This document shows positions 9,034 to 59,038 of a DNA stretch of 64,000 nt, one piece after another (the first letter of the stretch is position 1; every line of letters begins with the position of its first letter). Position numbers and translations under genes: made by a program. The DNA is from Aestuariivita boseongensis. Its GTDB lineage: Bacteria > Pseudomonadota > Alphaproteobacteria > Rhodobacterales > Rhodobacteraceae. The stretch covers positions 62,070 to 126,069 of the forward strand of contig NZ_JXYH01000005.1 in the NCBI RefSeq assembly GCF_001262635.1. The letters are read 5' to 3'. Below the pieces are notes generated by a model. It saw only the letters and a list, made by a program, of their open reading frames with translations. It made no database searches and was not told where the DNA came from.

Positions 9034-10287
9034 TCAATCCGTGTCACCTGTTCCGTCAGGCTCGGACGCAGGGGCCCCACCTTCGAAGGCGTTGCCATTG
9101 ACGTAATCGCAGGGCGCTTCCTGCATTTCCAGATGCAGGCCCGTGCCGGTATAGGGATGGGCGCGGGCCAGATCTTCGTCCACCTCGATGCCCAGACCGG
9201 GGGCGGTGGGGGGCGTTATGAACCCGTCCTCCACCCGGATTGCGCCCTTGATCAGACGATCATGGAAATCGGTCTCAATCGTTTCGCACATCAGGATATT
9301 GGGGATCGACGCGGCCAGGTGAATATTCGCCGCCCATTCTACCGGCCCTGCATAGAGATGCGGCGCCATCTGCGCGTTATAGACCTCGGCGATGGCGGCC
9401 ACTTTCTTCATCTCCCAGATACCGCCCGCGCGCCCCAGCGCTGGCTGTAGGATCGTCGCCGCGCCCGCACGCAGGATCTGGGCGAATTCGGCTTTGGTCG
9501 TAATCCGCTCTCCGGTGGCCACCGGGATGCGCACGGCGCGCGCGACCTTGGCCATCTCCTCCACCGCGTCGGGGGGAATGGGTTCTTCGAACCACAGCGG
9601 CGAATAGGGCTCCAGCGCCTGGCCCAGACGGATCGCGCCTGCGGTGGTGAACTGGCCATGGGTGCCGAACAGCAAATCGGCCTTGTCGCCCACAGCCTCC
9701 CGGATCGCTTTGCAGAAGGCTACCGATTGGCTGATATCCGACATCGCCGGCATATGCCCACCGCGCAGCGTGTAGGGGCCTGCGGGGTCGAATTTCACCG
9801 CCGTGAAACCGCGCGCCACGCAATCCGCCGCAGCCTCGGCCGCCATCTCGGGCGAGGTCCAGAAGTCTTTCATCCGGTGATGCGCCAAAGGGTAAAGATA
9901 GGTATAGGCGCGGATCCGGTCATTCATCTTCCCGCCGATCAGCGCATGAACGGGGCGGTCCCGATCCTTGCCCAGAATGTCCCAGCAGGCGATCTCAAGC
10001 CCGGAAAACGCGCCCATCACCGTCAGGTCGGGCCGTTGCGTAAACCCGCTGGAATAGGCGCGGCGGAACATCAGTTCGATGTTTTCGGGGTTCTCGCCCG
10101 CCATATGCCGTTCGAAAACATCGCGGATCACATGGGTCATCGCCTCGGGCCCGATGGACGAGGCATAGCATTCCCCCCAGCCCGTAACCCCGGTATCGGT
10201 GGAGAGCTTCACCAGGATCCAATACCGCCCACCCCAGCCAGGAGCAGGGGGCGCGGTCACGATCAAGTCCAGATCGGTCAGTTTCAT
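9034..10287 (-). CDS. Mandelate racemase / muconate-lactonizing enzyme family (enolase superfamily) dehydratase or cycloisomerase
   Basis: N-terminal capping domain (ILVKLSTDTGVTGWGE). Barrel-domain metal-ligand context (WFEEP, FGTHGQ). GGGAGG RBS before the ATG on the minus strand. Confidence 0.85.
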   Translation of the reverse strand: MKLTDLDLIVTAPPAPGWGGRYWILVKLSTDTGVTGWGECYASSIGPEAMTHVIRDVFERHMAGENPENIELMFRRAYSSGFTQRPDLTVMGAFSGLEIACWDILGKDRDRPVHALIGGKMNDRIRAYTYLYPLAHHRMKDFWTSPEMAAEAAADCVARGFTAVKFDPAGPYTLRGGHMPAMSDISQSVAFCKAIREAVGDKADLLFGTHGQFTTAGAIRLGQALEPYSPLWFEEPIPPDAVEEMAKVARAVRIPVATGERITTKAEFAQILRAGAATILQPALGRAGGIWEMKKVAAIAEVYNAQMAPHLYAGPVEWAANIHLAASIPNILMCETIETDFHDRLIKGAIRVEDGFITPPTAPGLGIEVDEDLARAHPYTGTGLHLEMQEAPCDYVNGNAFEGGAPASEPDGTGDTD

Positions 10288-23641: not shown

Positions 23642-24760
23642 GTGCCGACACCATTTTTGTTTCAACCCCGTGAATTTTATCCCGCGCCGCTTGCCAGATT
23701 GCGCAGGCTTTGGCACCCTGAGATCAGAGCAGATAAGGAGACCAGATTGGCCATCAGCGCCCTGACCCCCGATCAAACCCTTGCAGCCGATCAAGAGCTG
23801 CTGATCGAATTTCCAGACAATCTTCTCATGGCCGCCCTCGTGGGCGAACATTCCCGAAACCTCGTTCCCATCGAACAGCAGCTTCAGGTGCAGATCCTCC
23901 ACAAGGGCAACCAACTTGCGATCCTGGGGGAAGAAGACGCGCAGAAACGCGCCGCCGAAGTGCTGCACGCGCTTTACACGCGGCTGGAGCAGGGCCGCGC
24001 GGTGGAACAGGGCGATATCGACCGTGAATTGCGCATGGGCGGGTCCGAGGACGTGACAGGCGACCGCGCCGGCGACCAGCTTGAGATGTTCCGCGGCGGC
24101 AAGGTCGAGATCAAGACGCGCAAGAAACTGGTCGAACCGCGCACGGACGCGCAGAAGGCCTATGTGACGTCCCTGTTCGAGCATGAACTGGCCTTCGGCA
24201 TCGGCCCGGCCGGCACCGGCAAGACCTATCTGGCGGTGGCGGTGGGCGTGAACATGTTCATCAACGGCCATGTGGACCGGATCATCCTGTCGCGCCCGGC
24301 GGTGGAGGCCGGTGAAAAGCTGGGCTATCTTCCGGGCGACATGAAGGACAAGGTCGATCCCTACATGCAGCCGCTTTACGATGCGCTGAACGATTTCCTG
24401 CCAGGCAAGCAACTGGCCAAACTGATCGAGGAAAAGCGCATCGAGATCGCGCCACTGGCCTTCATGCGCGGCCGCACGCTGGCCAATGCCTTCGTGGTGC
24501 TGGACGAGGCGCAGAATGCCACGACCATGCAGATGAAGATGTTCCTGACCCGCCTGGGTGAGGGAAGCCGCATGGTCATCACCGGCGATCGCAGCCAGGT
24601 CGACCTGCCGCGCGGGGTGCCTTCGGGGCTTGCGGATGCCGAGCGGCTGTTGAAGTCGATCCCCAAGATCAGCTTCAACTATTTCACCGCCAAGGATGTG
24701 GTCCGCCACCCGCTGGTCGCCGCCATTATCGAGGCCTATGACGCCGATACCGCCGGGTAG
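23642..24760 (+). CDS. ybeZ: PhoH-like ATPase (YbeZ). The start may instead be the TTG near 23750.
   Basis: Walker A GPAGTGKTYLAV. PhoH signature LSRPAVEAGEKLGYLPGD...VVLDEAQN. Ends with TAG. Confidence 0.85.
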   Translation: MPTPFLFQPREFYPAPLARLRRLWHPEIRADKETRLAISALTPDQTLAADQELLIEFPDNLLMAALVGEHSRNLVPIEQQLQVQILHKGNQLAILGEEDAQKRAAEVLHALYTRLEQGRAVEQGDIDRELRMGGSEDVTGDRAGDQLEMFRGGKVEIKTRKKLVEPRTDAQKAYVTSLFEHELAFGIGPAGTGKTYLAVAVGVNMFINGHVDRIILSRPAVEAGEKLGYLPGDMKDKVDPYMQPLYDALNDFLPGKQLAKLIEEKRIEIAPLAFMRGRTLANAFVVLDEAQNATTMQMKMFLTRLGEGSRMVITGDRSQVDLPRGVPSGLADAERLLKSIPKISFNYFTAKDVVRHPLVAAIIEAYDADTAG

Positions 24761-24921
24761 GGGTGAACGCCCCTTGACATCGAAGAGCGCGTCCAAGCGC
24801 CTTGGAAGGCGCTTGTCACGCGATTTGGAAATCGCGTATCTCAAGCCCGTTCGAACGGGCTTGCCCCCTCAGACATAGCAAAACGCTTTGCCCCGGTTTC
24901 GCCTCTGCGTTAAGGGACCGC

Positions 24922-25425
24922 ATGACCGCAGAGACCCTCATCGAAGACGACCGCTGGACCCAGATTGACCTGCCCCGGCTGACCGATCAGGCCACCGCCG
25001 CGACACTCACCCATCTGGGCCTTGACCCCGAGGCGTGCGAGCTGACGGTTCTGGCCTGCGATGACTCGCGCATCGCCGTGCTGAACGCCGAATTCCGCGA
25101 CAAGCCCACACCCACCAATGTGCTGAGCTGGCCGTCAGAAGATCTGGCCCCCGAAATCGAGGGCGACACGCCCATGTCACCCAGCCCCGACATCACCGGA
25201 GAGATCGCCCTGGGCGACATCGCCATCGCCTATGACACCTGCGCCCGCGAGGCTGCAGAGGCAGGCAAAACCCTGCGCGATCACGCGACGCATCTGATCA
25301 TTCATGGTCTGTTACACCTTCTGGGCTATGACCATATTCGTGACGGCGATGCCACGTTGATGGAAGAAACTGAGGTCAGGATACTTGGCACATTGGGTAT
25401 TGATGACCCATATAGGGTGGATTGA
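24922..25425 (+). CDS. ybeY: Endoribonuclease YbeY (16S rRNA 3'-end maturation)
   Basis: Zinc-binding HxxxHxxGxxH motif (HLIIHGLLHLLGYDH). Confidence 0.9.
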   Translation: MTAETLIEDDRWTQIDLPRLTDQATAATLTHLGLDPEACELTVLACDDSRIAVLNAEFRDKPTPTNVLSWPSEDLAPEIEGDTPMSPSPDITGEIALGDIAIAYDTCAREAAEAGKTLRDHATHLIIHGLLHLLGYDHIRDGDATLMEETEVRILGTLGIDDPYRVD

Positions 25426-25455
25426 TGGGGGATTTCCCCGTTTCGGACAGGACAA

Positions 25456-27800: not shown

Positions 27801-27851
27801 TCCAGAATGAGATTGACCCCGCGCCTGCGCCCGCGTAAGCGCTGTCGTCAT

Positions 27852-27900
27852 GGCTCTCGCAACGGCTTCCTGGCGCGGGAGTGGACACATTAATGGAGCA
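27852..27900 (+). promoter_or_regulatory. Probable SAM/SAH riboswitch (Rhodobacterales metK leader). Pseudoknot would sequester the ribosome-binding site.
   Basis: ~49-nt element ending 5 nt before the metK ATG. Stem around CGCAACGGCUUCCUGGCGCG, with loop CUUCC complementary to the downstream GGAG SD inside ...UGGAGCA. The motif class is known to be restricted to Rhodobacterales metK 5'UTRs. Assignment from memory of the consensus. Confidence 0.45.
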
Positions 27901-27905
27901 CCTTC

Positions 27906-29087
27906 ATGGCCCGTCAGAACTATACGTTTACCTCGGAATCCGTTTCCGAGGGCCACCCCGATAAAGTCTGCGACCGCATCTCGGACGCGGTTCTGGATGC
28001 CTTCCTCGCGGAAGAGCCCGAAGCGCGCGTTGCCGCAGAAACCTTCGCCACCACCAACCGCGTCGTGATCGGCGGCGAAGTGGGCCTGTCGGACAAGGAC
28101 AAGCTGCAGACCTATATGGGCAAGATCGACGAGATCGCCCGCGCCTGCATCAAGGACATCGGGTACGAGCAGGAGAAGTTCCACTGGAACACCTGTGAGA
28201 TCACCAACCTGCTGCACGAACAATCCGCCCATATCGCCCAGGGCGTGAATGCTTCGGACAACAAGGACGAAGGCGCCGGCGACCAGGGCATCATGTTCGG
28301 CTATGCCACCACGGAAACGCCCGCGCTGATGCCCGCACCGATCCAGTATTCTCACGCGATCCTGCGCCGCCTGGCCGAAGTGCGCAAGAACGGCACCGAA
28401 CCCGCGTTGGGCCCGGATGCCAAATCGCAGCTGTCGGTTGTTTATGAAAACGGCCAGCCCGTGCGGGTCAGCTCGGTCGTGCTGTCGACCCAGCATCTGG
28501 ACGAGGATCTGACCTCGGACGATATCCGTGCGATTGTGGAGCCATATATCGTGGAAAGCCTGCCCGAAGGGTGGCTGACGGCGGACACCGTCTGGCACGT
28601 GAACCCCACCGGCAAGTTCGTCATTGGCGGGCCTGACGGGGATGCGGGGCTCACCGGCCGCAAGATCATTGTCGACACCTATGGCGGTGCGGCCCCCCAT
28701 GGGGGCGGCGCGTTCTCCGGCAAGGATCCAACCAAGGTGGACCGCTCGGCCGCTTATGCCGCGCGCTATCTGGCGAAAAACGTCGTGGCCGCCGGCATGG
28801 CCGACCGCTGCACGATCCAGTTGAGCTATGCCATCGGTGTGTCGCACCCGCTGTCGGTCTATGCCGACACCCACGGCACGGGCGAGGTTGCGCCCGCCGA
28901 TATCGAAAAGGCCGTGCGCGCCGCGATGGATCTGACCCCGCGCGGCATCCGCGAGCATCTGCAGCTGAACAAACCCATCTATCAGCGCACCGCGGCTTAT
29001 GGCCATTTCGGCCGTGAACCGGATGCGGATGGCGGCTTCTCGTGGGAGAAGACGGACCTTGTCGAGACGCTGAAAAAGGCGATCTGA
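27906..29087 (+). CDS. metK: S-adenosylmethionine synthetase
   Basis: [30 protein letters not shown] and other invariant MAT motifs. Confidence 0.95.
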
Positions 29088-39278: not shown

Positions 39279-39305
39279 TCCTTGCCCATTGTGGCAGGCA
39301 CAGAC

Positions 39306-39338
39306 GGCCCCGCCTTCCCTGGCGGGGCCGTTTTCGTT
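39306..39338 (+). terminator. Rho-independent terminator of rpsA
   Basis: GGCCCCGCC-TTCCCT-GGCGGGGCC hairpin followed by GTTTTCGTT. Confidence 0.6.
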
Positions 39339-40199: not shown

Positions 40200-40853
40200 A
40201 TGGCACCCGAGATTTCCGTCAAGATCTGTGGCCTGACCACAGAGGACCAGGTGAGCGCCGCGGCCGAGGCCGGGGCGCGGTTTCTTGGCTTCAACTTCTT
40301 TCCGAAATCCCCCCGCTATGTGACGCCGGCCCGCGCGGCGGAACTGGCGGCGCAGGTTCCCGTCGGCGTGGCCAAAGTGGCGCTGGTGGTGAACGCGTCG
40401 GATGAGGAGCTGGAGCAGATCGTATCCACGGTGCCAATCGACATCCTTCAGTTGCACGGATCGGAACCGCCCGAGCGTGTGGCCCAGCTGAAGGCCCGCT
40501 TTGGCCTGCCGGTCATGAAAGTCATCGGCGTGGCGGACGAGGCAGATCTGGCTGCGATCGACATCTATGAACCGGTGGCCGATATGCTGCTGATCGACGC
40601 GAAGCCCCCCAAGGATGCGGTCTTGCCCGGTGGCAATGGTCTGGCCTTTGACTGGCGATTGTTGGCGGGGCGCAAATACTGGACCCGGCCCTGGATGCTG
40701 GCCGGTGGTCTCACGCCCGAGAACGTGGCCCAGGCGATTGCCATGACGGGGGCCCGCGCGGTCGATGTGGCATCCGGCGTGGAACGCGCGCCTGGGGTGA
40801 AGGACCCGGCCCTGATGGCCGCGTTTGTGCAGGCGGCGTCAACCGGGCGTTAA
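40200..40853 (+). CDS. trpF: N-(5'-phosphoribosyl)anthranilate isomerase
   Basis: KICGLT....GA...GF.F...SPR motifs of TrpF. Confidence 0.9.
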
Positions 40854-40876: not shown

Positions 40877-41107
40877 ATGGCACAGATACCCGAACACCTG
40901 ACACCCGAGATTTGGATAAACCAGTTTTTTGGCTCGCAGGAGGCGCAGCGCGGCGGCGTCGTGAAACGCAAGGTGCGTGATGTGGAACGGCTTGTCGGCC
41001 ATGAGGCCTTCATTGCCGAGGTTGAACGGCGCGGTTTTCAAGCCGTGCGCAACAATCTGCATTACGTGGTCTTCTGCAATATGTTGCCGATCCGCCGGGT
41101 CCGGTGA
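40877..41107 (+). CDS. Small hypothetical ORF between trpF and trpB
   Basis: 76-aa ORF with genome-like codon bias. No recognisable family. Ends immediately before the palindrome array. Confidence 0.35.
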   Translation: MAQIPEHLTPEIWINQFFGSQEAQRGGVVKRKVRDVERLVGHEAFIAEVERRGFQAVRNNLHYVVFCNMLPIRRVR

Positions 41108-41108
41108 C

Positions 41109-41255
41109 AAGGGCCTTGGAAGGCCCTTGTTCAAGCGGTTTCGAAACCGCTTGAACAAGGCGTTTCGAAACGCCTTCCCCACCTTCGCCAAAGCTGTGAA
41201 GGCGAATTTTCGAAAATTCGCTTCTGCCGGCAAGCGATCCTTCGAAGGATCGCTT
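41109..41255. repeat. Array of five consecutive palindromes, all centred on TTCGAA (TTGGAA in the first)
   Basis: Directly read: AAGGGCC-TTGGAA-GGCCCTT (41109-41128). GTTCAAGCGGTTTCGAAACCGCTTGAAC (41129-41156, perfect 28 bp). GGCGTTTCGAAACGCC (41159-41174). GCGAATTTTCGAAAATTCGC (41202-41221). AAGCGATCCTTCGAAGGATCGCTT (41232-41255). Confidence 0.85.
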
Positions 41256-41308
41256 TACCCTCCTCATACGTCCCGCTAAACCGGGGAAAGCCAATTGGGG
41301 ACACCAAG

Positions 41309-42553
41309 ATGAACGATCTTTTCAACTCTTTCATGACCGGCCCGGATGAAAACGGCCGTTTCGGCAATTTTGGCGGGCGCTTCGTGTCCGAGACGCTGAT
41401 GCCGCTGATCCTGGAGCTGGAAGAGCAGTATGAGCGCGCCAAGACCGACGACAGTTTCTGGGCCGAGATGCACGACCTCTGGACCCATTACGTCGGCCGC
41501 CCCAGCCCGCTGTATTTCGCCGAACGCCTCACCGATCATCTGGGCGGCGCGAAAATCTATATGAAGCGCGATGAGCTGAACCACACCGGCGCGCATAAGA
41601 TCAACAACGTGCTGGGCCAGATCATCCTGGCCCGCCGCATGGGCAAGACCCGCATCATCGCCGAAACCGGCGCGGGCCAGCACGGTGTGGCGACTGCCAC
41701 GGTCTGTGCGAAATTCGGGTTGAAATGCATCGTCTATATGGGCGCGCATGACGTCGAACGTCAGGCCCCCAACGTCTTCCGCATGCGCCTTCTGGGGGCA
41801 GAGGTGATCCCCGTGACCTCGGGCCGTGGCACGCTCAAAGACGCGATGAACGACGCGCTGCGCGATTGGGTGACCAATGTGCGCGACACGTTTTACTGCA
41901 TCGGCACGGTGGCGGGTCCGCACCCGTACCCGGCCATGGTCCGCGATTTCCAGTCGATCATCGGCAAGGAAGCCAAGGAACAGATGCAGGCCGCCGAGGG
42001 CCGTCTGCCCGACACGATCATCGCCGCCATCGGTGGCGGATCGAACGCGATGGGGCTGTTTTACCCGTTCCTCGACGACACCTCGGTGAACATCATCGGC
42101 GTGGAAGCCGGCGGCAAGGGCGTGAATGAGAAGATGGAGCATTGCGCCTCTCTCACCGGCGGCCGGCCCGGCGTGCTGCACGGCAACCGCACCTATCTGC
42201 TGCAGGATGAGGACGGGCAGATCCTGGAAGGCTTCTCGATTTCGGCGGGTCTGGATTACCCCGGCATCGGGCCGGAACATGCCTGGCTTCATGATATCGG
42301 GCGCGCGCAATATGTCTCGATCACCGATGTGGAGGCGCTGGAGGCGTTCAAGTTGTGCTGCGAGCAGGAGGGGATCATTCCCGCGTTGGAGCCCAGCCAC
42401 GCGCTGGCCCATGTGATGAAGATCGCGCCGGAGCTGCCCAAAGATCACATCATCTGCATGAACATGTGCGGACGGGGTGACAAGGATATCTTCACCGTGG
42501 CTCGTGCACTGGGCTTTGACATGTCCGGCCCAGAAGGCCGCAGCGTCGAGTGA
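41309..42553 (+). CDS. trpB: Tryptophan synthase beta chain
   Basis: [14 protein letters not shown]-lysine region [15 protein letters not shown] motif. Confidence 0.95.
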
Positions 42554-42591
42554 AATATTCCATCTGAAGACCTCCGGCAAACGGGGCGGCA

Positions 42592-42623
42592 GGGCGGCCA
42601 GACCGGGGCCGCCCTTTTCATTT
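42592..42623 (+). terminator. Rho-independent terminator after trpB
   Basis: GGGCGGCC-AGACCGG-GGCCGCCC hairpin followed by TTTTCATTTG. Confidence 0.65.
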
Positions 42624-43253
42624 GTTGCGCAACTGCGCAATTTTGTTGCGCGCACACCACAGGCGCTTCCGCCACGTAAATCTTTTTGTTGAGCGAAGCC
42701 GCCGCCGCGCCGTATTCCAGCCCTCCCAATTGGAGGCGATCTTCAAGGTTCAGGGTCCAAACCTGACCGGTGCGGCTGGCGCTGCCTGACCGTATGCCGA
42801 TCGCAGACAAACGGGGGCCGATTCCAAAACTCGGATAGAGCGTGGGCCTCTTCAAAGCCCTGCCGTGAGGCACCTTTTCGGACATTGCCACGTCCGAACA
42901 CCATCCATTCGGTGTTCCTTTCATCGGATCGCCGGGCCCGCGCAGCGTGCGGCCCGGACCGCAACCGGCTTTGCCATTTGCGGGACAAACCAACCGCTGC
43001 TCTGGCCTTGTGCCAGGGACGTGGATGACGGATCCGCCGCCCTTTGGCCCGCCGCTGGCGCGCCTCTGGGTCGCGCCCCTCTCGCCCACGATCCCTCGTC
43101 CGGGGGCATGGCAAAAGGTTCGGCGATCCACCCCGCCCCCCGGCTCAGGGGCATCACACCTGCGGTCCATGACGGGCCCAACCCACCCAACCAGAAAAGG
43201 AGTTCGCGTTTTGCGACGACGATGACACCCGCAGCTAACAAAGGAGATATGTG

Positions 43254-44387
43254 ATGCGGTTTTTTGATTTTTTGACCCCGAAACGACGGGTCGTGGTGGC
43301 CGCCGATGAACGCGCGGTGATCACACGAGACGGCACAGTGGTCGATGTGCTTGGGCCTGGCACCCATTCCATCGTTCACACAGACACCGCCACACGGGTC
43401 CGCCTTGAGGATCCCATAGTTCCTTTGGTTGAAGCGCGGAGGCTTTTCGTCACAAATCCGGACTTGGCGAAGCGCCATTTCCAGTTGGTTGAGATGGGGC
43501 CGCATGAGATCGCGGTTGCCAATCGGCACCAGGCGTTCTCCCACGTGCTTTTGCCGCGTGAGCAAGTGGTGTTCTTGGCGGATGCGCTCGATTTGACGAT
43601 CGACCGGATCGACATCACGGCGTCCCGCATGTTGCCGACGGATGTCCGCGACCGGTTCTTGCAGGGGGCTACCCCGCATGAATTCAGGCGCATCGATGTG
43701 CCTGCCGGTCATGTTGCGGTGGTCTTTGACGGGGATGCCCCGCCGATGGTGATGCAGCCCGGGACGGAGTTCTTCGTCAGAACCGGTGCGATCTTCCACA
43801 TGCGCACCATGACCATGCGCCAGCAGGCGATGGAGGTCACCGGTCAGGAGATCTTGACCCGCGACCGTGTCTCTGTCCGCGTGAACGTCACGGTGGCCTT
43901 CGTGGTCGAAGACCCTGTGCGGGTTGTCACCACGACCGAGGGGGTCAACGAGGTCTTGCGCACCGCCGTGCAATTGGCCGCGCGGGAAACCTTGGGGGCC
44001 GTCACGCTTGACGGGCTTTTGGAAGACAAGGTGGCGATCAACCGCGAGGCCGCCGACAGGGTCCGCGCCGAGATGGCAGAGTTCGGGATCAAGGTCACGA
44101 CTCTTGCCCTCAAGGACGTGATCTTGCCCGGGGAGATGCGGGAGATCCTTACCTCTGTCGTCGCCGCGCAGAAAGAGGCCGAGGCGAACGTCATCCGCCG
44201 GCGCGAGGAAACGAACGCCACGCGGTCCTTGCTTAACACGGCAAAGGTGATGGCGGACAACCCGGTGCTTCTCAGGCTCAAGGAGCTTGAGGCGCTTCAG
44301 GCGATCGCCGACCGGGTCGATACGATCACGGTGCATAACGGGACCGAAGGGTTGATGACCGATTTGGTCCGGTTGCGCGACCGGTAA
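43254..44387 (+). CDS. SPFH/band-7 (stomatin/HflK-C-like) domain protein
   Basis: AAGGAG RBS 7 nt upstream. SPFH core (IFHMRTMTMRQQAMEVTGQEILTRDRVSVRVNVTVAF) and coiled C-terminus (AAQKEAEANVIRRREETNA). Confidence 0.8.
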   Translation: MRFFDFLTPKRRVVVAADERAVITRDGTVVDVLGPGTHSIVHTDTATRVRLEDPIVPLVEARRLFVTNPDLAKRHFQLVEMGPHEIAVANRHQAFSHVLLPREQVVFLADALDLTIDRIDITASRMLPTDVRDRFLQGATPHEFRRIDVPAGHVAVVFDGDAPPMVMQPGTEFFVRTGAIFHMRTMTMRQQAMEVTGQEILTRDRVSVRVNVTVAFVVEDPVRVVTTTEGVNEVLRTAVQLAARETLGAVTLDGLLEDKVAINREAADRVRAEMAEFGIKVTTLALKDVILPGEMREILTSVVAAQKEAEANVIRRREETNATRSLLNTAKVMADNPVLLRLKELEALQAIADRVDTITVHNGTEGLMTDLVRLRDR

Positions 44388-57815: not shown

Positions 57816-58259
57816 ATGTATTTCGACGATATGCCGGTTGGGTTTACCTTTGAGACGGGCAGCCGGACGCTGAGCGCGGAGGCGATCAAACGGTTTGCGC
57901 GGGAATGGGACCCGCAGCCCTTTCACCTGGATGAGGATGCGGCGGCGGCCTCGGTTTACGGCGGGCTGATTGCCAGCGGGTTTCACACGGTGCTGACGGC
58001 ATTTACCCTGACGCTGGAGGCAAGCGATTGGTCGGACAGTTCCATGGGATCGCCGGGTATGGAGAATGTGCGCTGGATCAAGCCGGTTTATGCGGGCGAT
58101 ACGCTGCGGGTGAAGGCCGAGGTGACGGCGGCCACGCCGTCGCGGTCAAAGCCCGATCGCGGATTTGTCGAGGTGCAGTATGATATCCTGAACCAGGATG
58201 ACGTTCTGGTCGCGGCCTACCGGGCGAGCCATATGCTGCGCCGCCGTCAGGCGGAGTGA
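57816..58259 (+). CDS. MaoC-like (R)-hydratase/dehydratase (hot-dog fold)
   Basis: [14 protein letters not shown]...[10 protein letters not shown] hot-dog motif. Confidence 0.8.
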
Positions 58260-59038
58260 GCACCGTCAGCCAGAGATTTCACGAAATCCAGCACATCGTC
58301 CACCGGTTTGCCGGCGGCGATCTGACTGACGATGGCTGAGCCCACGACAGCGCCGTCAGAGACGCTGGCGATGGTTTTGGCGCGGTCCGGCGTGTTGATG
58401 CCGAAGCCCACGATCACCGGAAGGTTGGTCTGCGATTTGATGCGTGCCACTTCGGGGCCGACGTCGGAGGCCTGCGCCTCGGCCGAGCCGGTGATACCGG
58501 TGATCGAGACGTAATAGACAAAGCCGGAGGTGTTCTGCAGCACGCGCGGCAGGCGCTTGTCATCGGTGGTGGGCGTGGCAAGGCGGATGAAGTTCAGCCC
58601 GGCCTTTTGCGCGGGGATGCACAGTTCGTCATCTTCTTCGGGCGGCAGATCAACGACGATAAGGCCGTCGATGCCCGCCTCGACCGCTTCGGCCAGGAAC
58701 CGGTCGACGCCGCGCGAATAGATCGGGTTGTAATAGCCCATCAGCACAATGGGGGTGGTGTCATTGGTGCTGCGGAAGTCGCGGACCATCTGCAGGGTCT
58801 TGTCCACGGTCATGCCGCCTTCGAGTGCGCGTTGACCGGCCAGCTGGATCGTGGGGCCATCAGCCATGGGATCTGTAAAGGGCAGGCCCAGTTCGATGAT
58901 ATCGACGCCCGCGCCGGGCAGGCCCTTGACCACCTCAAGCGAGGTGGCGACGTCGGGGTCTCCCGCCATCACATAGGCGACGAAGGCTTTACGACCTTGG
59001 GCTTTGAGGTCGGCGAATGTCTGGTCAATCCGGGTCAT
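58247..59038 (-). CDS. trpA: Tryptophan synthase alpha chain
   Basis: VAYVMAGDP...[17 protein letters not shown]...VDLPPEE...[13 protein letters not shown] motifs. Confidence 0.9.

Follow-up and report, generated by a model that had tools for sequence, protein, structure and literature searches.

Comparison with described protein-repeat systems

In Rhodobacter sphaeroides and other Alphaproteobacteria, the 'cuckoo' RNAs CcsR1-4 are paired with the DUF1127 protein CcaF1: the CcsR units derive from the 3′ untranslated region (3′ UTR) of ccaF1, and CcaF1 is a small RNA-binding protein that affects CcsR maturation and stability (PMC8034643). Here we analyzed a locus of similar layout in a 64,000-nucleotide (nt) stretch of the Aestuariivita boseongensis genome (contig NZ_JXYH01000005.1, positions 62,070 to 126,069 of the forward strand), hereafter called the window, in which an array of five hairpin-forming palindromes lies between trpF and trpB, at the end of a gene for a small protein of 76 amino acids (aa), ORF76. 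As in the CcaF1-CcsR system, a gene for a protein of ~70 aa is followed by co-oriented tandem stem-loops whose copy number varies among taxa, and both systems belong to the same bacterial order. However, unlike CcaF1, ORF76 carries no DUF1127 domain (no Pfam match at E ≤ 0.01 and no NCBIfam match). Each CcsR is a small RNA of ~80 nt made of two hairpins whose loops bear the anti-Shine-Dalgarno motif CCUCCUCCC, whereas a unit of the present array is one perfect palindrome of 20–24 nt with a loop of 0–5 nt; these units give no match to Rfam ar14/CcsR even at E ≤ 10.

The array also recalls the REP (repetitive extragenic palindromic) elements and bacterial interspersed mosaic elements (BIMEs) of Enterobacteria and Pseudomonads, which are extragenic palindromes of 20–40 bp arranged in head-to-tail clusters that separate genes of the same operon (PMC3733652). 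As with BIMEs and the REP-associated tyrosine transposase (RAYT), dispersed copies of the same style occur in the genome together with a 'home' gene flanked by repeats. In contrast to REP and BIME, no unit carries a GTAG or CGTC tag, the palindromes are perfect and without orientation, they occur in very few copies in the sequence covered, and the order of the units is conserved across genera. RAYT, moreover, is a Y1/HUH transposase with repeats flanking its gene, whereas ORF76 has 76 aa, gives no Y1_Tnp match and has repeats on its 3′ side only.

A further parallel is the F-plasmid sopB-sopC locus, where the gene of the partition DNA-binding protein is followed by the palindromic repeat array of that protein. 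In both cases short inverted repeats stand in a regular tandem row directly after a gene whose own product might bind them, but the ORF76 locus includes no ParA-type ATPase, it is chromosomal and set among trp genes, and its units differ in mid-stem. Because these variable positions are self-complementary, hairpins are indicated rather than duplex sites. As stable stem-loops at a gene 3′ end, the units resemble intrinsic terminators as well, from which they differ by having no U tract and by comprising multiple units at a fixed period. The elements look like REP clusters and cuckoo-type loci but lack the sequence hallmarks by which either kind is defined, and there is a fair chance that they represent a new protein-hairpin system. 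In the literature, we found no account of the ORF76 family or of its hairpin arrays.

Hairpin arrays follow ORF76 homologs among Roseobacteraceae

The region preceding trpB was compared in 81 loci, namely the window and 80 trpB-anchored loci taken from other Roseobacteraceae without regard to ORF76, in which ORF76 homologs were detected by tblastn. Arrays of 2–5 perfect hairpins were found at −230 to −75 of trpB in 13 of the 80 fetched loci, and these are exactly the 13 that encode an ORF76 homolog. With the window counted, an array lies between ORF76 and trpB in 14 of 14 loci having ORF76, compared with one of the 67 trpB loci lacking it (L020; Fisher p = 8e-15). The comparison of this intergenic region in relatives, which the initial annotation had suggested, showed that array presence follows ORF76; and the adjacent small open reading frame (ORF), which it had called unannotatable, turns out to be a conserved gene that predicts array positions best.

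Among loci fetched through ORF76 homologs, the order ORF76, four hairpins and trpB recurs in Jannaschia sp. CCS1, Roseicyclus marinus, Ruegeria sp. HKCCD8929 and Nioella. Distant homologs carry two hairpins at the gene end in L205 (between pnp and rpsO), L207 (with a CoA-transferase gene adjacent), L208, and L209 (after uvrB, on a 116-kb plasmid of Tropicibacter oceani). Overall, 2–5 hairpins occur at or near the end of an ORF76-family gene in 23 of 23 distinct loci, in the same direction as the gene at the DNA level, and the contexts of gene plus array comprise trpF-trpB, MatE-trpB, pnp/rpsO, a CoA-transferase neighbour and a plasmid uvrB neighbour. The position of the stop codon relative to the hairpins varies, from inside or after them (L081, L084 and L209) to ~20 nt before the first (L030). 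Downstream of the hairpins of L205 and L208 there is an ordinary T-tailed terminator, and since this canonical terminator comes after them, the hairpins lie within the transcript and are not the terminator.

Gene and array also move together. Between two Marivita species the difference is one indel of ~345 bp, made up of ORF76 together with the array and ending midway through the last palindrome, and the subtypes of ORF76 follow the style of the hairpins better than they follow TrpB similarity. Together with the comparisons given below, these data show linkage, co-transfer, structural conservation and dispersal of the unit. That the strict linkage of gene and array survives changes of context we regard as strong evidence for a functional partnership.

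The trpF-trpB junction is itself a variable cassette slot in Roseobacteraceae, as seen in this interval of L001–L080 (for example, L047 9535–10001, L063 9495–10001 and L073 9543–10001). Depending on the genus, the slot holds ORF76, a DUF3291-like ORF (~110 aa, in Ruegeria), a GNAT-like ORF (~150 aa, in Roseicyclus and others), a further 110-aa ORF (in Nioella), or nothing; that of Nioella L211 holds the 111-aa ORF plus ORF76. In Nioella L073, which has no ORF76 at trpF-trpB, one imperfect TTCGAA-centred hairpin, GGCGTCTTTCGAAACGCC, lies just before the trpB promoter region (~9895–9925) and may be the remnant of an array.

The five hairpins of the window array

Five hairpin-forming inverted repeats, as many as the initial annotation had listed, occupy positions 41107–41255 of the window, with TTGGAA at the dyad of the first (hp1) and TTCGAA at the dyads of the other four (hp2–hp5). 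On the forward strand, hp1 (type 'a', 41107–41130) reads ACAAGGGCC-TTGGAA-GGCCCTTGT and has a stem of 11; hp2 (type 'c'-like, 41125–41160) is a perfect palindrome of 36 bp with the 28-bp core CAAGCGGTTTCGAAACCGCTTG at 41129–41156, and its outer CCTTGT/ACAAGG, 6 nt on each side, overlaps hp1 and hp3. A perfect 20-bp palindrome, AAGGCGTTTCGAAACGCCTT, forms hp3 (type 'd', 41157–41176), whereas hp4 (41199–41225) consists of a perfect 20-bp core, GCGAATTTTCGAAAATTCGC, at 41202–41221 and an extension with one bulged G. The last unit, hp5 (41232–41255), is the perfect 24-bp palindrome AAGCGATCCTTCGAAGGATCGCTT, the last two bases of which overlap a −35-like hexamer.

The lengths first reported for the perfect palindromes (28, 16, 20 and 24 bp) were slightly off, the measured values being 36 (core 28), 20, 20 and 24 bp. 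The array does adjoin the small ORF; it begins not 1 nt past the stop codon, as had been stated, but on its last base, which hp1 shares (TGA, 41105–41107), while the given distance of 53 nt between the end of hp5 (41255) and the start of trpB (41309) is correct. The arms had been described as differing in a manner that speaks against simple tandem duplication. They are indeed not duplicates of one sequence, but they are related via a common outer (C)AAG...CTT(G) frame, which in the window hairpins encloses a variable GC-rich block of 3–7 bp.

Perfect palindromes of at least 20 bp number five in the 64-kb window, every one of them TTCGAA-centred, whereas first-order Markov simulations (200 runs) gave a mean of 0.2 and a maximum of 2 per 64 kb; the observed number is far beyond chance. 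At the remaining 26 TTCGAA sites of the window, the flanks have no complementarity. The predicted fold of the array is very stable (−88 kcal/mol over 207 nt). The earlier proposal of stable hairpin-forming units under constraint is supported, and the view that the six-frame ORFs over the array are artefacts of the palindromes is likewise supported. Individual units recur in relatives: the 20-mer of hp3 is found identically in Nioella L211 and in L190, and inside a 24-mer in Roseicyclus L084; hp4 is common to the window and Aestuariivita L006, with a compensatory T-A to C-G change in the L002 version; and hp5 is also present in L002 and L006, the L006 copy having one U.G wobble.

The fold, apex and base of the hairpins are conserved rather than the central hexamer

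Across the loci, the hairpins measure 18–36 nt and are almost purely Watson-Crick, with stems of 8–12 bp and loops of 0–5 nt (UCGA, UGGA or NNN). Their centre-to-centre spacing is 22–26 nt in 40 of 43 intervals taken over all lineages, giving a period of about 24 ± 1 nt. In ~80 hairpins with ~850 stem positions, only ~6 internal mismatches were counted, four being sense-strand G.U pairs with no A.C among them, and compensatory double changes were found at 6 of 19 consensus pairs in seven lower-GC genera. These compensatory changes and the near-absence of mismatches indicate that structure has been kept over sequence.

The central dinucleotide, by comparison, varies in orthologous hairpins (TTGGAA, TTCAAA, TTTGAA, TTCCAA and TTACAA), the apex in lower-GC genera is TTTC-NNN-GAAA, and the units begin with CAAG, AAAG, ACGC or CAAA. 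Within a shared CAAG...YTT-NN-AAR...CTTG frame, the conserved elements are the fold, the YTT/AAR apex and the CAAR/YTTG base, and not the central CG. The initial suggestion of selection on the TTCGAA hexamer itself is not supported, since the centre varies among genera while hairpin, apex and base are maintained. In the window, TTCGAA occurs at 31 sites compared with 14.7 expected from dinucleotide-preserving shuffles, mostly within genes, probably as Phe-Glu (TTC GAA) codon pairs. The hexamer is over-represented, not avoided, and its centre is not conserved; a restriction/modification motif was rejected on these grounds, with no search for a cognate methyltransferase reaching beyond the window. 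CsrA-type decoys with GGA loops were considered as well and rejected, for GGA is found in just 3 of 8 window hairpins and CGA in most. Rfam returned no family for the hairpin arrays, either at the gathering threshold or at E ≤ 10.

ORF76 is a candidate partner protein of the hairpins

ORF76 (40877–41107, forward strand) encodes a basic protein that is 100% identical to a 'hypothetical protein' of A. boseongensis and has >200 homologs; the family comprises 386 cluster representatives, nearly all of them stand-alone proteins of 60–130 aa. No match to ORF76 was obtained in Pfam (E ≤ 0.01), NCBIfam, PADLOC, PHROG or PDB sequences, profile searches included. The AlphaFold (AF2) model, with a pLDDT (predicted local distance difference test) of 90, has the order helix, helix, strand, helix, helix, strand, strand. 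The protein contains an invariant K/R-rich segment, GGVVKRxxRDVER, and nucleic-acid binding by ORF76 is plausible.

The Roseobacteraceae count among the marine heterotrophs that are most abundant and have been studied best. Their hairpin arrays are unannotated, and the gene family is labelled 'hypothetical' or misnamed, so its recognition corrects misannotations. Several RefSeq entries of ORF76-family proteins are named 'N-(5′-phosphoribosyl)anthranilate isomerase', and the Tropicibacter plasmid copy (L209 3046–3255; NZ_CP124617.1 9654–9863) is misnamed 'aspartate aminotransferase'. In some genomes the annotated ORF76 extends into the hairpins, giving 86–87 aa in Jannaschia and Roseicyclus.

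We propose that the ORF76-family gene and the 2–5 packed stem-loops that start at the end of its conserved coding region form a two-part unit. We regard the hairpins as part of the 3′ region of the ORF76 transcript; they would act as folded stem-loops and would give the ORF76 protein a platform for binding or processing, in parallel to CcaF1-CcsR. In the window, the array would separate the trpF-ORF76 transcript from the trpB promoter, probably as a 3′-end barrier, and the rare solo arrays, such as that between phoH and ybeY, are dispersed copies of the multi-hairpin element. The most likely reading, at about even odds, is that the units work as folded stem-loops partnered with the ORF76 protein; we infer a role as folded nucleic acid, binding by ORF76, and RNA as the level of action. 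True palindromes fold into identical hairpins whichever strand or orientation is taken, and the units could also extrude from DNA; strand- and orientation-independent hairpin formation may itself be the point. If the partnership holds, a 76-aa protein binding 22-nt hairpins would provide a second, unrelated example of the CcaF1-CcsR type of module that joins a small protein to structured repeats.

A broader version of this proposal, which we put forward tentatively and with less than even confidence, is that ORF76 founds a new small-protein family that recognises short perfect hairpins, as RNA or as extruded or single-stranded DNA, via the CAAG/CTTG base and the YTT-NN-AAR apex. The protein would co-evolve with the adjacent array of its sites, and the arrays would seed satellites such as those at phoH-ybeY and nuoN-birA, which would make up a new regulatory or semi-mobile system of protein plus hairpin array in marine Roseobacteraceae, unrelated in sequence to RAYT-REP and to DUF1127-CcsR.

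Several observations weigh against a partnership of ORF76 with RNA hairpins. Loops of 0–5 nt are too short for base-pairing functions like those of the CcsRs, and the 4:0 bias of G.U over A.C mismatches falls short of significance (p = 0.06). Pair counts by RNAfold for the two strands suggested no sense-strand bias; the per-hairpin census is stricter, and neither is decisive. The stems are symmetric, G.U pairs amount to ~0.5%, and many units are palindromic through the loop. These features agree with maintenance at the DNA level, through cruciforms or templated correction of palindromes, no less well than with selection on RNA. In addition, ORF76 is absent in cis from the solo arrays (array A of the window, L190, the second array of L039, L037, and L020, which retains the hairpins).

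Array subtypes and dispersed copies

In type I arrays, four ordered hairpins were distinguished, a (AAGGGCC), b (AAGCCGC), c (ACGCGGTT) and d (AAGGCGTT), which are recognisable in Nioella, Ruegeria, Sedimentitalea, Mameliella, Jannaschia and Roseicyclus; orthologs of hp1 (type 'a', AAGGGCC...) stand first in the arrays of Nioella, Ruegeria, Mameliella and Sedimentitalea. In the window, ORF76 is of type I and is accompanied by hairpins a, c and d, which together constitute a 95-nt insertion relative to the congeners L002 and L006 and precede hp4, hp5 and the promoter region common to both congeners. An identical hairpin, GATTTTTCTGCGAAAAATC, is present in L205 and L207, though their neighbours and GC content differ.

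A second array of the window, solo array A (24794–24863, forward strand), lies between phoH (23642–24760) and ybeY (24922–25428) and has three hairpins at 24794–24815 (TTGGAA), 24818–24837 (TTGGAA) and 24842–24863 (TTCGAA). Array A, hp1–hp3 of the trp array and the L190 array align as one unit of ~70 nt; array A is a paralog of the three-hairpin unit that was inserted into the trp array. A promoter after array A was considered and set aside, TTGCCC and CATAGC being merely 7 nt apart; a weak TTTGCC-N17-TTAAGG candidate remains, less convincing than the motif before trpB. Other solo arrays were found in L190 (nuoN-birA), L039 (its second array, after trpA), L037, L025 and L020.

In the main rival explanation, in our estimate an unlikely one, the arrays would be low-copy, REP/BIME-like selfish DNA palindromes, spread and homogenised via hairpin intermediates and having their home at the ORF76 flank. 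ORF76 would then be a DNA-hairpin-binding or mobilising protein, an analogue of RAYT with an unrelated fold, or a mere neighbour, and effects on transcripts would be incidental. The clustered extragenic palindromes of 20–24 bp fall into the REP size class (PMC3733652). The same triple unit stands at three unrelated loci (phoH-ybeY, ORF76-trpB, and nuoN-birA in L190), and in L190 the units b, c and d are in inverted order. Array size differs among close relatives, as the three-hairpin insertion of the window illustrates, and within one genome the solo array shares the style of the ORF76-linked array (array A and the trp array of the window; both arrays of L039). Near-perfect symmetric pairing with almost no intermediates is also what template-switch correction of quasi-palindromes would give, and both the scarcity of mismatches and the palindromic loops accord well with this rival.

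Copy number, however, appears low in the sequence covered: the 64-kb window has two arrays, the loci of relatives, ~1.5 Mb in all, have ~5 solo arrays, and a 100-kb part of a Tropicibacter replicon has none besides the ORF76-linked pair, which points to a low-copy family rather than a classical high-copy REP. The units lack the GTAG/CGTC tag, the linked gene does not encode a Y1 transposase and its 76-aa product is smaller than transposases are known to be, and no target-site duplications were seen at the Marivita indel or in the comparison of the window with its congeners. The identity and order of the hairpins (a, b, c, d) are kept across genera, which resembles vertical conservation under constraint rather than mobile turnover. 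Were the selfish explanation nevertheless correct, the arrays would represent a novel sort of REP-like element whose partner is no transposase.

A blastn search of the array against plasmids gave no match, and in a metagenome scan for three TTCGAA units the matches listed were mostly chance hits in low-GC contigs, with only L190 among them being informative. The sole short-read contig with an exact ORF76 (Logan, SRR29904083, 1885 nt) stops 47 nt past the gene, which suggests that short-read assemblies break at the palindrome array. Two repeats of other kinds were encountered: in L108 (6450–6515), an unrelated metagenome contig with a GC content of 0.62, a tandem 13-mer, CGTTTCGAAACGA, occurs in several copies as a different kind of TTCGAA repeat; and on a Tropicibacter plasmid (L213 32599–34142), the palindrome GTCCACCGCGGTGGAC occurs three times around repABC and looks like parS of RepABC replicons.

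Position of the array between the ORF76 stop codon and the putative trpB promoter

The gene order in this part of the window is rpsA, ihfB, lapA-like, trpF, ORF76, hairpin array and trpB, with trpF (phosphoribosylanthranilate isomerase, 40200–40853) and trpB (tryptophan synthase beta, 41309–42553) both on the forward strand. A promoter-like motif precedes trpB at 41254–41282 on the same strand, consisting of TTTACC (41254–41259), 17 nt and GCTAAACC (41275–41282), and GCTTTACC-N16/17-GCTAnnnC is conserved at a fixed distance before trpB in many genera, with or without ORF76. The motif, which was not picked up by an E. coli-type promoter scan, resembles the alphaproteobacterial sigma-70 consensus, TTGACGS and GCTANAWC in Caulobacter, and we infer that it functions as a promoter. 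Since hp5 overlaps the first two bases of this motif, the array occupies the gap between the end of ORF76 and the ancestral trpB promoter.

Canonical T-tailed terminators are present elsewhere in the window, after rpsA (39304–39331) and after trpB (42591–42615). A terminator scan of the window recovered both and called none of the five hairpins, and the earlier suggestion of intrinsic terminators is not upheld: the hairpins have no T tail, and canonical T-tailed terminators occur nearby and even directly after such arrays.

This position bears on a second rival, which we consider improbable, that the units are protein-independent RNA stem-loops that block 3′-to-5′ exonucleases or set a processed 3′ end, modulate the termination or translation of ORF76 and insulate the trpB promoter from read-through. 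Precedents exist among REPs, which stabilise the malE-malF mRNA and, when located within ~15 nt of stop codons in E. coli, lead to ribosome stalling. The window array starts at the ORF76 stop codon and lies between co-directional genes, abutting the −35 of the conserved trpB promoter motif; the very stable predicted fold and the four sense-strand G.U mismatches also agree with a function as RNA. Yet such stem-loops would leave unexplained why this hairpin family accompanies a single gene family in five or more genomic contexts, and why there are 2–5 units with a 24-nt period and a conserved base and apex where one GC-rich hairpin would suffice; the stop codon is, moreover, variably placed relative to the first hairpin, and the same genomes use ordinary terminators elsewhere. 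A protein-independent role at the 3′ end may coexist with the ORF76 partnership or with selfish spread.

Highly improbable is an operator array bound as duplex by a dimeric regulator of the trpB promoter, perhaps ORF76 itself as a small winged-helix-like repressor: although the palindromes lie directly before the −35-like hexamer and overlap it, the order of secondary structure in ORF76 (a1-b1-a2-a3-b2-b3) is compatible with a winged helix, the CAAG, TTCGAA and CTTG blocks ~9 bp apart would fall on one face of B-DNA, and the 24-bp period is reminiscent of phage operator triplets, duplex recognition does not require a self-complementary variable middle, the half-site spacing changes by lineage (TTTC-N0-GAAA vs TTTC-N3-GAAA), the trpB promoter motif is conserved without an array in most genera, and the winged-helix matches of ORF76 are not significant. 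An action on trpB of the dimeric regulator envisaged in the initial annotation is further contradicted by arrays that accompany ORF76 with no trpB or promoter downstream, including before a convergent terminator, and by their absence from 66 of 67 trpB promoters lacking ORF76.

A trp-specific cis-regulator (TRAP-like, TrpR-like or an attenuator) had been suspected from arrays preceding trpB in many genera and from two arrays flanking trpA. It was rejected: arrays occur at 2 of 22 trpA loci, the L025 array is not beside trpA, distant ORF76 homologs have arrays outside trp, and ORF76, with a single conserved Trp, is not a leader peptide. As the primary explanation, the data exclude an operator of trpB, an intrinsic terminator or a restriction site.

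Other features of the window

In the window, trpA (58250–59038, reverse strand) is unlinked from trpB, ~16 kb away and on the opposite strand. An SPFH/Band-7 gene (43251–44387) comes after trpB and trpB's own terminator. An S-adenosylmethionine/S-adenosylhomocysteine (SAM/SAH) riboswitch (Rfam RF01727, 57 bits), in keeping with the bacterial order of the source, was identified at 27851–27900, directly before metK (27906–29087), which encodes S-adenosylmethionine synthetase domains.

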